This document shows, one piece after another, positions 901 through 4,609 of a stretch of 4,609 nt of DNA; position 1 is the stretch's first letter, and each line of letters begins with the position of its first letter. The notes under the pieces were generated by a model. It had not been told where the DNA came from. It did no database searches and was given only the letters and a program-made list of their open reading frames with translations. The position numbers were made by a program, and so were the translations under genes. The DNA is from a virus (taxonomy: Duplodnaviria > Heunggongvirae > Uroviricota > Caudoviricetes). The stretch lies in IMG/VR virus record IMGVR_UViG_2703718809_000009; one strand, given 5' to 3'.

Positions 901-1129
901 GGCTCACCACCTCCATATCAGCCATGATAATTTTGCTGGCCTCATTCAGTGCCATATCAGCACTAAGTTGCATTACAGCCAGTGAATGAGGAACGAAAGC
1001 CCCGGCATATTCTGTTTCACTGGTAGCGTGCTTATGCGCCCTGTCCGCGATAACAGAAATATCAATCAGTGCATCAATCAGTGTTTTGATTGCTTCGGCG
1101 GCTGCGTCCGGACGGGTGTTATTGCACAT
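893..1129 (-). CDS. Hypothetical small protein (78 aa)
   Basis: ATG at 1129..1127 preceded by AGGGGG. Overlaps the stop of the Icd-like gene (1119..1121) by 11 nt. No family recognised. Confidence 0.55.
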   Translation of the reverse strand: MCNNTRPDAAAEAIKTLIDALIDISVIADRAHKHATSETEYAGAFVPHSLAVMQLSADMALNEASKIIMADMEVVSHE

Positions 1130-1487
1130 GGTGCACCCCCTGACGAATACGGGCGGCGAATATCATCACGCAGCCAGTTGGGGATTGTTGGCGGGCTTCC
1201 TGTTCGCTGGCGGCCTCGATGTGTATTACGCGTGGTTGTGCGGTGCTCAGGGCGATAAAACGCCAGATGAAATTGTTTTCGCATTTCTGAATAAACAGCG
1301 TGTTTTCTTCACGCCCTTTCCAGAAAGCCGCAGTATAGCCCATCTCCTTAACCATCTTGCGGGCATCAACCAGCGTGTCAGCGGCAACATGTACCGTAGT
1401 TGCTCCATCTGCCATGCGGTCGTGGTGTAGTGCCACAAAGGTGTATATAAATTTAGGGTGAGTTTGGGTATGCTGTGTTCCAGCCAT
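1119..1487 (-). CDS. Icd-like (host cell division inhibitor family) phage protein, 122 aa; first gene of the leftward operon
   Basis: ATG at 1487..1485 with SD GAGGT (reverse complement of 1495-1499) at ideal spacing. Translation MAGTQHTQTHPKFIYTFVALHHDR... resembles the Icd-like small proteins of P4-type elements as I recall them. The ORF-track entry 1119..2036 is an implausible upstream extension that runs through the operator repeats and antisense to the RHH gene. Confidence 0.55.
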   Translation of the reverse strand: MAGTQHTQTHPKFIYTFVALHHDRMADGATTVHVAADTLVDARKMVKEMGYTAAFWKGREENTLFIQKCENNFIWRFIALSTAQPRVIHIEAASEQEARQQSPTGCVMIFAARIRQGVHHVQ

Positions 1488-1518
1488 AATCGTTACCTCG
1501 TTTAACGGTTTGGTTAGA

Positions 1519-1560
1519 AGCCCGGTTAGTGTTCGCGCACTGCCGGGTTTCGTCGTTTTT
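1519..1560 (+). terminator. Terminator-like GC-rich hairpin plus T-tract on the + strand, lying inside the leader of the minus-strand operon
   Basis: cccggttagtg (1521-1531) pairs with cactgccggg (1538-1547): about 10 bp with one bulge, loop ttcgcg, followed by tttcgtcgttttt (1548-1560). There is no + strand gene upstream to terminate, so its role is uncertain. Confidence 0.35.
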
Positions 1561-1573
1561 ATGAATCGATCAT

Positions 1574-1676
1574 TGTGAGATACATAGCGACCATAATGTG
1601 AGATATACATTATATTGTGGTGATATACATTGCAAGTGTTTTTATATCTCACTTTTGTGTATAGTGATATACACAT
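1574..1676. promoter_or_regulatory. Divergent promoter/operator region with an array of GTGA(G)ATATACAT-like repeats
   Basis: Direct copies at 1575-1586 (gtgagatacata), 1598-1610 (gtgagatatacat), 1620-1630 (gtgatatacat) and 1664-1676 (gtgatatacacat); inverted half-site tatatctcac at 1643-1652. Start-to-start spacing 23, 22 and 44 bp. A perfect TATAAT on the minus strand (1614..1609) overlaps the second repeat, and a palindromic TTGCAA sits at 1630-1635. Confidence 0.5.
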
Positions 1677-1695: not shown

Positions 1696-1998
1696 ATGTC
1701 TGTATACAAAAATGCAAAATCGCAAATGACAACGATCAGGGTTCCCCACGATGTTATGGAGGGCATGGAATCCGTAAAACTGGACGGCGAAAGCAACGCC
1801 GGATTCATAGTAACCGCCATGCGCGGTGAGATCGCCCGCCGCCAGGCAGAAGGAAGCGGAGAAAATCCCCTCGTGTCTTCACTGGATGCCTTAGCTAAGG
1901 TCGAACAAATCGGCATCAAGGCAGCGGAGGAAATCGGGCAACTCGTAGCCGTCGCTCGTGAAGAACTCCAGCGGCGTAAAGCCAAAGAATCTGAATAA
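1696..1998 (+). CDS. Ribbon-helix-helix (CopG/Arc-like) putative transcriptional regulator, 100 aa
   Basis: ATG at 1696 with GGTGA 6 nt upstream. The N-terminal segment TTIRVPHDVMEGMESVKLDGESNAGFIVTAMRGEIARRQ fits a beta-strand / helix / G-x-S-N turn / helix layout, followed by a charged C-terminal tail. Divergent from the Icd-like operon across the repeat array. An alternative start at the ATG at 1726 is possible. Confidence 0.65.
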   Translation: MSVYKNAKSQMTTIRVPHDVMEGMESVKLDGESNAGFIVTAMRGEIARRQAEGSGENPLVSSLDALAKVEQIGIKAAEEIGQLVAVAREELQRRKAKESE

Positions 1999-2007
1999 TT
2001 AGTATCA

Positions 2008-2034
2008 GCGCCGTGATGTGAGTAACTACGGCGC
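2008..2034 (+). other. Weak hairpin downstream of the RHH gene (7-bp stem gcgccgt/acggcgc, 13-nt loop)
   Basis: Inverted repeat 2008-2014 / 2028-2034, 10 nt after the TAA stop at 1996-1998. No clear U-tract follows, so terminator function is uncertain. Confidence 0.2.
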
Positions 2035-2348
2035 ATTGCTATGTAAATACTGGCAATAAACAGAAAAGGTAGTTCTACTCCGAATAATTTTATCTGACAC
2101 TACTCCTGAACTAACATGCGCTTATCTTACAGGATATAAATATAAATCCATAAAATCACGATTAAATAAAGTCGCTCCAAACATAAACCACACCCAACGC
2201 TTAACAAGATAGCAACAAACAGGTAAATAACTTGCAGAAATATTTATCGCAAGGATTATCATTATTAATGACAAATCACTTTACCAAGTCATTCCCCTCT
2301 CTTATCATAAAGAGAAAGTAATAAATAAGTTAAGGGAGTTAGAATGCT

Positions 2349-2885
2349 ATGAATCTAAAAAAAATAGCCACAAACACAAAAAACAAGATAACAGAAACAT
2401 TTAATAAACTTATATTAGAGGCATCTAAAACCCCCACACAAGATGAAATTAAAATACTTGAGAGAAGGAGCAAGAAGTTTAATTACTCCTTTTTCTCATA
2501 CGCAGTCACAGGAGCTATAATAGTTTTTTGCTCTCAACCATTAATTAAATACGCAAACCCAATACTTATTTTATTGAGTGGTCTGTTACTGTCTATCATC
2601 ATTATCATTCTCAGAATGATTTATATTTCACAAGCGAATGCATCATGGACAACCAAAAAACGCTCACATGTACTAGTTCATTTTCTTTCTGCATGTTTCA
2701 TAGCATCAACATTGACGTTGCTATATCAGGCTTACGATAATAACATCACACACAAATTGTACTGTAAAAATATACAACAACTTATTGAAAAAAGGATAGA
2801 AACAGAAAAAAACATCAGCATATTCAGTGGGATGCAATGCACCCCGGTATATGATTACTCTTTATTTGGATTTAATCTCTTATAA
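2349..2885 (+). CDS. Predicted small integral membrane protein (178 aa, about 3 TM segments) in AT-rich cargo; function unknown
   Basis: ATG at 2349 with SD AAGGGAG (2331-2337). Hydrophobic segments FFSYAVTGAIIVFCSQPLI, ILILLSGLLLSIIIIILRMIYI and HVLVHFLSACFIASTLTLLY are flanked by charged soluble N- and C-terminal regions. Codon usage is strongly A/T-biased and the local GC is far below the flanks (about 27% in a 60-nt sample I counted). No family recognised. Confidence 0.75.
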   Translation: MNLKKIATNTKNKITETFNKLILEASKTPTQDEIKILERRSKKFNYSFFSYAVTGAIIVFCSQPLIKYANPILILLSGLLLSIIIIILRMIYISQANASWTTKKRSHVLVHFLSACFIASTLTLLYQAYDNNITHKLYCKNIQQLIEKRIETEKNISIFSGMQCTPVYDYSLFGFNLL

Positions 2886-2954: not shown

Positions 2955-3182
2955 TTAAACTACCCACTCACCTCGAATCCATGCCTGCACTTCTGAAAGA
3001 CGATATGCAACAGCAGTGGAACCAATCTTGATCCGCTTAGGAAATTTTCCTTCCTTCTCCAGCTTCCAGCGTGTGCTGTTCGCAAGAGTGGTTAGCTCCC
3101 GACATTCTTTCTCACGGATCATTCGGTCAATGTTAGGAATGTACTCCAGACCCTTTTTATCAACAATTGCCATTTTTTTCAT
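2955..3182 (-). CDS. alpA: AlpA-family phage regulatory protein (excisionase-like HTH DNA-binding protein), 75 aa
   Basis: ATG at 3182..3180, 1 nt after the int stop (TAA 3186..3184). Translation ...RELTTLANSTRWKLEKEGKFPKRIKIGSTAVAYRLSEVQAWI matches the characteristic AlpA/Vis-type helix-turn-helix pattern. The ORF-track start at 3191 is a TTG in the sequence, not ATG. Confidence 0.85.
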   Translation of the reverse strand: MKKMAIVDKKGLEYIPNIDRMIREKECRELTTLANSTRWKLEKEGKFPKRIKIGSTAVAYRLSEVQAWIRGEWVV

Positions 3183-3183
3183 G

Positions 3184-4419
3184 TTAACCAACCTTTTGTT
3201 TGAGGATTGTCACTTTTGAATCAGCACCTGCGATGCTATTGAGATATGTAGTCCAGAGTTCCAGAGCATCCAGTTTTTTAGCCATAAACTTACTCCGGTT
3301 GTAAACACCTGCCACGCCAGGTAGCGCATGGCCTAACAGTTGTTCTACTACATAAAATTCAACACCGAGATCACTTAGATGAGTAGATAGCGTTCTTCTA
3401 AGGTCGTGTAGTGACCATTGTTTTTCATGGCCCAAACGTTTACCGATTTTCCCCCCAATCTTGCTTACGCTTTCTCTAATTCGCAGACTTCCCAGCACAT
3501 AACCAGTATGTTTTGTCTCTTCGTGAACATCCGTTACCCACTGTCGTAGAATTTCAGGTACTGGTCTGACGATTTCAACACCAGTTTTTGAGTGATCTTT
3601 TGGTACAGTCCAAACCCAACTTTCGAGATCCCATTCGCTCCATTCTGATAATCGGGCTTCACTCATTCGACATCCAAATACTGTACAAAGCACAAACATT
3701 TTTCGCGTGTATTCAGACATTAGTTTTAAATCAGGCTCGACAAAAATTGCCTTCCAGAGCTGGCCGAGTTCGGCTTCATCCAGAACCCGATCCCGCTTAC
3801 CTGCAATCTGCCCCACATCACTCATGCGCAAATCCTTTAAAGCATCACACGTCGCGTACTGGCGTACCCGACAAAAACGAAGAGCTAATTTAGTGTCAGA
3901 AAAAACATACGCCGCCATAACTGGTGCATTACGTTTAATTCGGTCAAAACAGTCCAGCCATTCATATAGGTGAGTGTCATTTACGGGCAAATGACCGATA
4001 TAGGGAAAGATATGCTTTCGAAATCTGCCAAGCGTTACAGCATGAGTTTTACGACGCACCTTACAGTAATTTTCATACCAGTAATTTAGTGCATCCTCCA
4101 CTGTAACCGGCTTTAAGCGTTCTTCAGCCTGAATCTTAATCTGGATACGCGGATCACGTTTGTCAGCCAACCAACCACGGCACTCGTCGCGCTTTTCCCT
4201 TGCCTGTTTGAGTGACATATCAGGATATTTACCCAACGTTAGCCAGACCGGAGCAGCCCGGCCACCTGCTAACCTGTAGAAGAAAACAAAGCTCACAGCC
4301 CCTTTAGTACTCACACGAATAGAAAGCCCCTTTCCATCAGCAATGGTGATCTGCTTTTCTCTGGGTTTCCCCAGATATCCTTTAAGCGCTTTGTCGCTCA
4401 GTTTGTTCTCGCCAGCCAT
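3184..4419 (-). CDS. int: P4-type tyrosine integrase (site-specific recombinase, phage integrase family), 411 aa
   Basis: Start at ATG 4419..4417 (MAGENKLSDKALKGYLGKPREKQITIADGKGLSIRV...) preceded by GGGG; the ORF-track start at 4470 is a GTG extension. The N-terminus has the P4-int arm-binding domain pattern (...GKYPDMSLKQAREKRDE...). The C-terminus carries catalytic-domain motifs HDLRRT, LGH and the tyrosine in GVYNRS. Confidence 0.9.
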   Translation of the reverse strand: MAGENKLSDKALKGYLGKPREKQITIADGKGLSIRVSTKGAVSFVFFYRLAGGRAAPVWLTLGKYPDMSLKQAREKRDECRGWLADKRDPRIQIKIQAEERLKPVTVEDALNYWYENYCKVRRKTHAVTLGRFRKHIFPYIGHLPVNDTHLYEWLDCFDRIKRNAPVMAAYVFSDTKLALRFCRVRQYATCDALKDLRMSDVGQIAGKRDRVLDEAELGQLWKAIFVEPDLKLMSEYTRKMFVLCTVFGCRMSEARLSEWSEWDLESWVWTVPKDHSKTGVEIVRPVPEILRQWVTDVHEETKHTGYVLGSLRIRESVSKIGGKIGKRLGHEKQWSLHDLRRTLSTHLSDLGVEFYVVEQLLGHALPGVAGVYNRSKFMAKKLDALELWTTYLNSIAGADSKVTILKQKVG

Positions 4420-4434: not shown

Positions 4435-4471
4435 GCAATACAAGCTGCAATACAGAGATGATTGCAACACA
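4435..4471. promoter_or_regulatory. Three direct GCAAYACA repeats immediately upstream of the int start codon (candidate regulator or arm-type binding sites in the int promoter region)
   Basis: gcaataca at 4435-4442 and 4447-4454, gcaacaca at 4464-4471; spacing 12 and 17 bp; 16-52 bp upstream of the int ATG. A palindromic ttgcaa lies at 4462-4467. Confidence 0.3.
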
Positions 4472-4609
4472 CAGATAACGAGGAAAATTCAGTGAAAGCA
4501 CCAGATAAACTTATTCTTTATTATCAAAATATTAAGTGTAAAAACCAGCAACTACACGAAAGCCTCAGAAAGCCATGCTAAGTGCTTCGGCTTGACATAT
4601 CCCGGCGTA

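Follow-up and report, generated by a model that had tools for sequence, protein, structure and literature searches.

The immI region of phage P22 carries two ribbon-helix-helix (RHH) repressors, Mnt and Arc, together with their operators and the sar antisense RNA. Stl, the repressor of the Staphylococcus aureus pathogenicity islands (SaPIs), is a helix-turn-helix protein. For the Gram-negative phage-inducible chromosomal islands (PICIs), the founding paper describes elements that are 'transcribed unidirectionally' and calls their global repressor 'unclear' (PMC6092414); the helper-embedded PICI (HE-PICI) of the '11capE' type was later described by Tommasini, Mageeney and Williams (PMC10111431). 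The present contribution deals with a stretch of 4,609 nucleotides (the window) from the IMG/VR virus record IMGVR_UViG_2703718809_000009 (Caudoviricetes), which by its gene content is the left end of such a Gram-negative PICI, embedded in the capsid gene of a lambdoid prophage. An array of short repeats separates the gene of a 100-residue protein from a divergent operon that starts with an Icd-like gene. Most likely, a small RHH repressor binds these repeats and would thereby control two back-to-back promoters. We consider it probable that the array serves a bidirectional control region as its operator and belongs to an autoregulated RHH repressor switch that occurs in several immunity types.

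The repeat array and the predicted divergent promoters

Five copies of GTGA(GA)TATACAY start at positions 1575, 1598, 1620, 1642 (inverted) and 1664 of the window, that is 23, 22, 22 and 22 bp or about two helical turns apart, between the 100-residue protein gene (1696-1998, plus strand) and the Icd-like gene (1487..1119, minus strand). A first-pass annotation of this DNA had described four direct copies and one inverted copy of 11-13 bp, with 22-23 bp from start to start, between an RHH regulator gene and the Icd-like operon; the location and all five coordinates were found as it had claimed. The sites and the elements of the predicted leftward (P_L) and rightward (P_R) promoters are as follows.

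1575-1585, plus strand: putative operator site R1, GTGAGATACAT, at ~+15 to +25 of the predicted leftward transcript, ~20 nt past its start
1598-1610, plus strand: putative operator site R2, GTGAGATATACAT, over the point where the leftward transcript is predicted to start and the 3' part of its -10
1607..1614, minus strand: predicted -10 region of P_L, TATAAT (1614..1609, 15-bp spacer) overlapping TAATGT (1612..1607, 17-bp spacer)
1620-1630, plus strand: putative operator site R3, GTGATATACAT, within the leftward promoter spacer and touching the -35
1635..1630, minus strand: predicted -35 of P_L, TTGCAA (itself palindromic), with an A-tract directly upstream on the minus strand (1639-1643)
1642-1652, minus strand: putative operator site R4, GTGAGATATAA (minus-strand reading), inverted and weaker, within the rightward promoter spacer
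1660-1665, plus strand: predicted -10 of P_R for the RHH gene, TATAGT, without a good -35; its T, A and final T are invariant in 16 loci
1664-1674, plus strand: putative operator site R5, GTGATATACAC, reaching from the 3' end of the rightward -10 over the point where the RHH transcript is predicted to start

The ends of R5 are palindromic (GTG...CAC), and nucleotides 1643-1652 in R4 match the first 10 nt of R2 perfectly when reverse-complemented. A possible degenerate sixth copy, GTGATTAACTA, matches at 7 of 11 positions and is located at 1686-1696, 22 bp past R5, over the Shine-Dalgarno sequence and the start codon.

The arrangement was compared in 30 loci of about ten genera (E. coli, Yersinia, Xenorhabdus, Photorhabdus, Serratia, Enterobacter, Klebsiella, Edwardsiella, Erwinia and Phytobacter). 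Homologs of ~100 residues were found across the Enterobacterales, and in all 30 loci the gene lies between alpA, on which it converges, and a divergent operon of Icd-like or small open reading frames (ORFs) that runs toward a replication gene. The intergenic region measures ~190-210 bp and in every locus comprises a structured segment over the Icd-like start, followed by four to six sites every 22-23 bp. These sites keep constant offsets around an invariant leftward CAA (the TTG of the -35) with TTTT and around an invariant rightward TAnnnT -10. The position of R2 is that of the first core site in all relatives, the positions of R3, R4 and R5 are conserved as well, and R1 is retained in Yersinia as ATGAGATATACA with different flanks on both sides.

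Conservation also points to the promoters. Across 16 aligned loci neither the CAA (minus-strand TTG) nor the TTTT varies, and the -35 of P_L reads TTGACG, TTGACA or TTGAAA in relatives. The perfect TATAAT that had been proposed for the leftward operon at 1614..1609 is present and overlaps one repeat, sharing 2 nt with R2; however, its sole plausible -35, TTGCAA, is only 15 bp off, and the relatives favour the hexamer two bases on. In 18 of 24 relatives a TAnnnT hexamer is found 17 bp from the conserved -35, and TAATGT (1612..1607) is its equivalent in the window. Whichever -10 is used, the leftward transcript is predicted to start near 1600, inside R2, and the rightward transcript near 1672. 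The two promoters bear their sites in mirrored positions, R3 and R2 on P_L and R4 and R5 on P_R.

The 100-residue protein and its pairing with the site types

According to its structural model the 100-residue protein has an RHH fold, and the label given to it in the first-pass annotation was right. NCBIfam family NF041551 (YlcI_YnfO_N) matches residues 8-49 with 70.5 bits, well above the curated cut-off of 30, and RefSeq annotates an identical gene as a member of the YlcI/YnfO family. The AlphaFold2 model of the monomer features an extended N-terminus, helices at residues 18-27 and from 34 to 51-54 and one long helix at 58-99, thus containing the strand-helix-helix fold of ~45 residues that marks RHH proteins of the Arc/MetJ/CopG kind. 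An hhalign comparison with Arc is weak (P = 0.007, probability 5%) and in register, placing M11, T13 and R15 opposite Q9, N11 and R13; an R-x-P-x-[DE]-V motif at the transition from strand to helix is also in register with Arc. Q9, N11 and R13 are the base-contacting residues of Arc. R15 is invariant in 50 homologs, and residues 11 and 13 change in step with the site type. By analogy to Mnt, the C-terminal helix probably serves in oligomerisation; the hhalign match to Mnt itself covered 11 residues only. With Pfam default thresholds the protein had no match, at E values up to 10 only a weak one to an Rv0623-like family, and a tblastn search of 50,697 phage records returned none. The gene is present in 656 of 5426 complete E. 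coli genomes (~12%) and in many other Enterobacterales.

A profile search of PDB sequences gave a weak helix-hairpin-helix-like match of residues 45-86 (window 1828-1953) to the Hef nuclease domain (E = 0.008), with a Hef-like motif L..VE.IG.K.A.EI in which I72 and G73 are invariant. This reading was dropped, as AlphaFold2 confidently models one continuous helix here. A toxin-antitoxin pair was likewise rejected: the RHH gene is not followed by a toxin gene, and the downstream ORF is 350 nt off and missing from most relatives. The helper prophage has a 64-residue YlcI of its own (locus L001, 23048-23242) beside the small terminase gene, which shows the IRFP...RRR pattern of the same N-terminal family; a BLASTP comparison of the RHH protein with it gave no significant match.

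The site sequence and the N-terminal strand of the protein vary together. Among the 30 loci, seven site types pair one to one with seven strand types.

Type A: site GTGAGATA(TA)CAT; strand KSQMTTIRVP; the window and other E. coli, Yersinia
Type B: site TGTGTTTCA; strand KSQL(T/F)TVRVP; E. coli, Xenorhabdus, Photorhabdus, Serratia
Type C: site GTGTAAG.C; strand KSQSLTARIP; E. coli, Klebsiella, Edwardsiella, Enterobacter
Type D: site GTGTGTATTTA; strand KSQ(L/V/I)KN(I/V)R(I/V)P; Erwinia, Serratia and one contig labelled Martelella
Type E: site GTGTAT.TACA and ACACACC; strand RSQMKNIRFP; E. coli
Type F: site TGG(G/T)ATTCA; strand KSQQ(L/I)NARFP; E. coli, Phytobacter
Type G: site GTGTAAACA-like; strand KSQALAARVP; Klebsiella variicola

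The half-sites of type B are invariant whereas the 15-nt spacer between them is scrambled, and the same holds for the half-sites of type C and the DNA between them across four genera. A natural chimera narrows the pairing down to a short segment of the protein: the proteins of the window (type A) and of E. coli G12 (type B) have every residue from 23 to the end in common and differ only at residues 2-22, and their operators are unrelated (GTGAGATATACAT in the window, TGTGTTTCA in E. coli G12). The two DNAs diverge from the operator through about the first eight codons, are ~90% identical up to ~1830 and identical thereafter; a mosaic boundary thus falls inside the RHH gene (window 1696-1830, locus L025 388-520).

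The site type is independent of the other candidate partners. Loci L016 and L014 have similar Icd-like proteins and different sites, L005 and L012 similar AlpA proteins and different sites, and the window shares its sites with L022 although the AlpA proteins are only 39% identical. Nor does the site type follow the replication protein, for which D5-type primase, RepA helicase, DUF927 and Toprim types were all found. We infer binding of the RHH protein to the sites from this covariation, and the stoichiometry, cooperativity, sign of regulation and promoters of the scheme below are put forward in the same spirit.

The proposed switch and competing explanations

We assume that one RHH dimer binds each 11-13-bp site via its N-terminal strand. 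With sites 22-23 bp apart, all dimers would come to lie on one face of the DNA, and the long C-terminal helix would probably bridge neighbouring dimers, leading to cooperative binding. P_L (-35 at 1635..1630, -10 at ~1614..1607) would drive the operon of Icd-like, DUF4222 and primase genes leftward and P_R (-10 at 1660-1665) the RHH gene rightward. R3 and R2 would fill the spacer and the -10/+1 region of P_L, R4 and R5 the same positions on P_R; with the sites occupied, the replication operon should thus be off and the repressor would restrain its own synthesis. Three good sites on P_L, compared with one good and one degenerate site on P_R, suggest that P_L is repressed more tightly than P_R. 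An antisense RNA over the ribosome-binding site of the Icd-like gene may act as a second, post-transcriptional lock.

1482..1560, plus strand: predicted SymR-like cis-antisense small RNA with two hairpins and a U-tail, from an Rfam symR match, its fold and compensatory changes

This RNA would span the Shine-Dalgarno sequence and the start codon of the Icd-like gene. The Rfam symR model (RF01809) matches with 35.3 bits (E = 4.5e-4), below its gathering score of 61. The segment folds with -33.8 kcal/mol (z = -6.6), is conserved in all loci and, over 16 loci, has undergone compensatory change in 10 of its 19 pairs. When read on the plus strand 98% of the cells pair (50 G-U pairs included), compared with 82% on the minus strand, and the G-U pairs favour the plus strand. 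TATGCT at 1469-1474 would fit a start of the RNA near 1481; this promoter is uncertain. SymR of the E. coli symE/symR pair has in common with the predicted RNA a length of ~77 nt, two hairpins, a terminator and a location opposite the Shine-Dalgarno sequence and start codon of its target, which is symE there and the Icd-like gene here. The RNA thus resembles SymR in its position and its covariation-supported structure, without being a curated member of RF01809.

Several observations weigh against the proposed switch. Between 1560 and 1700 a consensus scan for sigma-70 promoters made no call. P_L would have a spacer of 15 bp or else a weak -10, and P_R lacks a recognisable -35; since the scan called neither promoter, their positions are taken from conservation alone. 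A Foldseek search returned no significant matches. The orientation of the sites varies, all but one being direct in the window and types B and C alternating, which would demand a roughly symmetric mode of recognition. The operator adjoins the 5' end of the gene, so that linkage in recombination could explain part of the covariation; selection is argued for because the pairs of protein head and site stay together even in genera with diverged spacers and C-terminal domains. For the model element AlpA is reported as the activator and no repressor is reported (PMC6092414). On balance, the RHH fold, the layout shared by 30 loci and a site sequence that co-varies with the N-terminus of the protein alone support the earlier proposal of a repressor operator in a divergent control region.

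The least credible alternative ascribes the repeats to chance or to low complexity in AT-rich intergenic DNA. The array region has 30% G+C and is rich in TATA, and 3 out of 2000 shuffles of 1560-1695 that preserved dinucleotides produced a 9-mer family of five members (at most one mismatch, both strands, regular spacing ignored). Yet the repeats are regularly spaced and confined to this region, and 30 loci retain their positions, with sequences particular to each type; chance, which had also been discounted in the first-pass annotation, is refuted as far as sequence comparison goes. GTGAKATACAY (at most two mismatches) matches eight times in the window where ~3.5 matches are expected per 4.6 kb, and six of these, corresponding to the five sites, fall inside the 100-bp array, a test that is partly circular as the pattern was taken from these same sites. 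No further copy was found in 28.5 kb of a near-identical element and flanking helper prophage. Scarcely more plausible is a reading of the repeats as replication-origin iterons or as a partition site of the centromere type. Direct repeats of ~11-13 bp at ~22-bp spacing in AT-rich DNA beside an RHH protein would suit either function, and ParG and omega are RHH proteins that bind centromeres. However, type A sites occur both with a D5-type primase (L001) and with a RepA helicase (L024), type C sites both with an AAA_25 protein (L018) and with a Toprim/DUF927 primase (L023), so that the repeats do not co-evolve with an initiator as replication iterons do; the PICI origin is located downstream of pri (PMC6092414). 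There is no partition ATPase, the element is integrative, and the sites frame conserved promoter elements. The term 'iteron-like' of the first-pass annotation is apt only as a description; the sites are unrelated to the replication protein, which varies between elements with the same sites.

Two further explanations accept the sites as regulatory. Binding by another factor, be it AlpA, the Icd-like protein or a helper-phage or host protein, appears improbable. The RHH protein is assigned to the sites by inference only, and the PHROG families that match the Icd-like protein are labelled 'transcriptional repressor', which would speak for such a factor. Against it, the site type tracks neither AlpA nor the Icd-like protein, seven site sequences in otherwise similar elements speak against a single host factor, and the type switches with RHH residues 2-22 alone. 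(The C-terminal 50 residues of the Icd-like protein match phrog_6196 and phrog_1743; its N-terminal half is highly variable in length and sequence among elements.) Somewhat less remote, although still unlikely, is the explanation that the RHH protein, once on the sites, does no more than autoregulate locally or assist as an accessory or immunity factor, with the replication operon mainly under AlpA-dependent upstream transcription and the array not a master switch. AlpA has been shown experimentally to be an activator that is essential for induction of the model element (PMC6092414), and alpA-int lies on the same strand as the Icd-like operon, which makes read-through geometrically possible. 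Moreover, the conserved hairpin beside Icd-like or ash genes is found in ~860 E. coli genomes and the RHH gene in the 656 given above, so that some elements appear to be without the RHH gene. This explanation is opposed by the position of three of the five sites, which lie over and downstream of the conserved leftward promoter and not at the RHH promoter, and by the retention of the layout in every locus examined.

Going beyond the autoregulated switch that we prefer, we suggest tentatively that the RHH protein and the array may together provide a large subset of Gram-negative PICIs with their master repressor and their immunity system. In such a system at least seven orthogonal specificities, each defined by ~20 N-terminal residues, would be exchanged together with the operator as one cassette, with the SymR-like RNA as a backup. 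The helper phage would release the switch, for instance by means of an anti-repressor or because convergent transcription driven by AlpA runs over the RHH gene.

The satellite and its relation to known systems

The window covers the left 4.6 kb of the element, and the primase and capsid part was judged from a 97%-identical copy in E. coli APEC E14033. The genes of the window are listed below.

1119..1487, minus strand: Icd-like gene, first of the leftward operon (NF033153, 75.4 bits; annotation of the near-identical element)
1696-1998, plus strand: 100-residue YlcI/YnfO-family gene, predicted repressor with an RHH domain at ~8-52 and a long C-terminal helix at 58-99
2349-2885, plus strand: AT-rich ORF for a predicted 178-residue membrane protein
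2955-3182, minus strand: AlpA gene (Pfam match)
3184-4419, minus strand: tyrosine integrase gene (Pfam match)

Within the window the leftward operon runs from the Icd-like gene through small ORFs up to the DUF4222 gene, with the primase beyond. In APEC E14033 it goes on to the primase, a single-stranded DNA-binding protein, a helix-turn-helix gene and the element's own capsid and decoration genes, and the entire 11-kb element lies between the two halves of the major capsid gene of a lambdoid prophage. Integrase and alpA followed by a primase module, a size of ~11 kb and a location within a prophage late gene are the hallmarks of a HE-PICI, and by this organisation the element is of the 11capE type of PMC10111431. 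At the right end of the window (~4470-4609; L001 16470-16715) the satellite passes into the N-terminal fragment of the helper major capsid gene, which corresponds to the att junction; the satellite's own capsid and decoration genes lie further left, beyond the window.

The region of small leftward ORFs at 480-1127 is left uncovered by the best E. coli matches to the full length, which reach 84% coverage in two pieces, whereas the remaining window is 97-99% identical; the operon from the Icd-like gene to DUF4222 is thus mosaic. Directly after the RHH stop codon a GC-rich hairpin (GCGCCGT...ACGGCGC, 2008-2036, plus strand) without a clear T-run could be a weak terminator or a stabilising structure, and a promoter-like site at 2280-2308 is located in the gap (1999-2348) ahead of the 178-residue ORF. 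The latter (31.5% G+C) has predicted membrane character and a weak DUF443 match as its only family evidence. It separates the RHH gene from alpA, is missing in most related elements and is therefore probably cargo.

Compared with the described HE-PICI 11capE and EcCICFT073-type elements (PMC10111431, PMC6092414), the common plan of int, alpA, a variable zone, primase and capsid gene and the integration in a lambdoid capsid gene are shared. These papers portray unidirectional elements with AlpA as the activator and without an identified repressor, and the divergent RHH gene with its operator is not described in them; PMC10111431 mentions neither the divergent gene nor the repeats. In the CFT073 genome, a look for EcCICFT073 at estimated coordinates came upon only the icd prophage and adjoining chromosome. 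YlcI/YnfO proteins figure in PMC13612085 only as unexplained accessory genes of satellites, and in the literature on PICIs with the terms ribbon-helix-helix or repressor no description of this system was found. The genomic context now suggests a function for this family, which has so far had none assigned. Gram-negative PICIs spread virulence, resistance and anti-phage genes, and the divergent RHH gene with its multi-site operator is a concrete candidate for the silencing of these satellites. With the chimeras that differ only at residues 2-22, nature supplies a means of probing RHH specificity and cross-immunity among satellites.

As for function, the region comes closest to P22 immI and the stl-str region of Gram-positive PICIs. 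With immI it shares a small Arc-type RHH protein as the predicted repressor, a C-terminal helical extension as in Mnt, putative operators over divergent promoters and a predicted antisense RNA on the ribosome-binding site of the operon's first gene. Where immI has adjacent half-sites in one operator, two regulators and the antirepressor as target, this region has four to six sites two turns apart, one regulator and an Icd-like gene leading to a primase; the RNA resembles SymR and not sar, and the protein has no sequence match among the phage records searched. As in the Stl/Rpr systems of SaPIs, the repressor gene is divergent from the satellite replication operon with the sites in the intergenic region (PMC6092414). 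Unlike Stl, the protein is of the RHH class, and its gene converges on alpA-int whereas that of the SaPIs is co-directional with int. Structurally the protein belongs with the RHH regulators that bind repeat arrays. Their dimers read short sites via a two-stranded sheet, and several bind direct or inverted repeats cooperatively, as is predicted here; in NikR two DNA-binding dimers about two helical turns apart are held by a separate oligomerisation domain. Sites of 11 bp with 22-23 bp between them differ from the contiguous 7-bp units of omega and 8-bp units of MetJ, there is no metal- or ligand-binding domain, and the role would be satellite control and not plasmid copy number or partition. 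An RHH repressor/operator switch is thus of a known kind, and the interest of the present one lies in satellite biology and not in a new mechanism.
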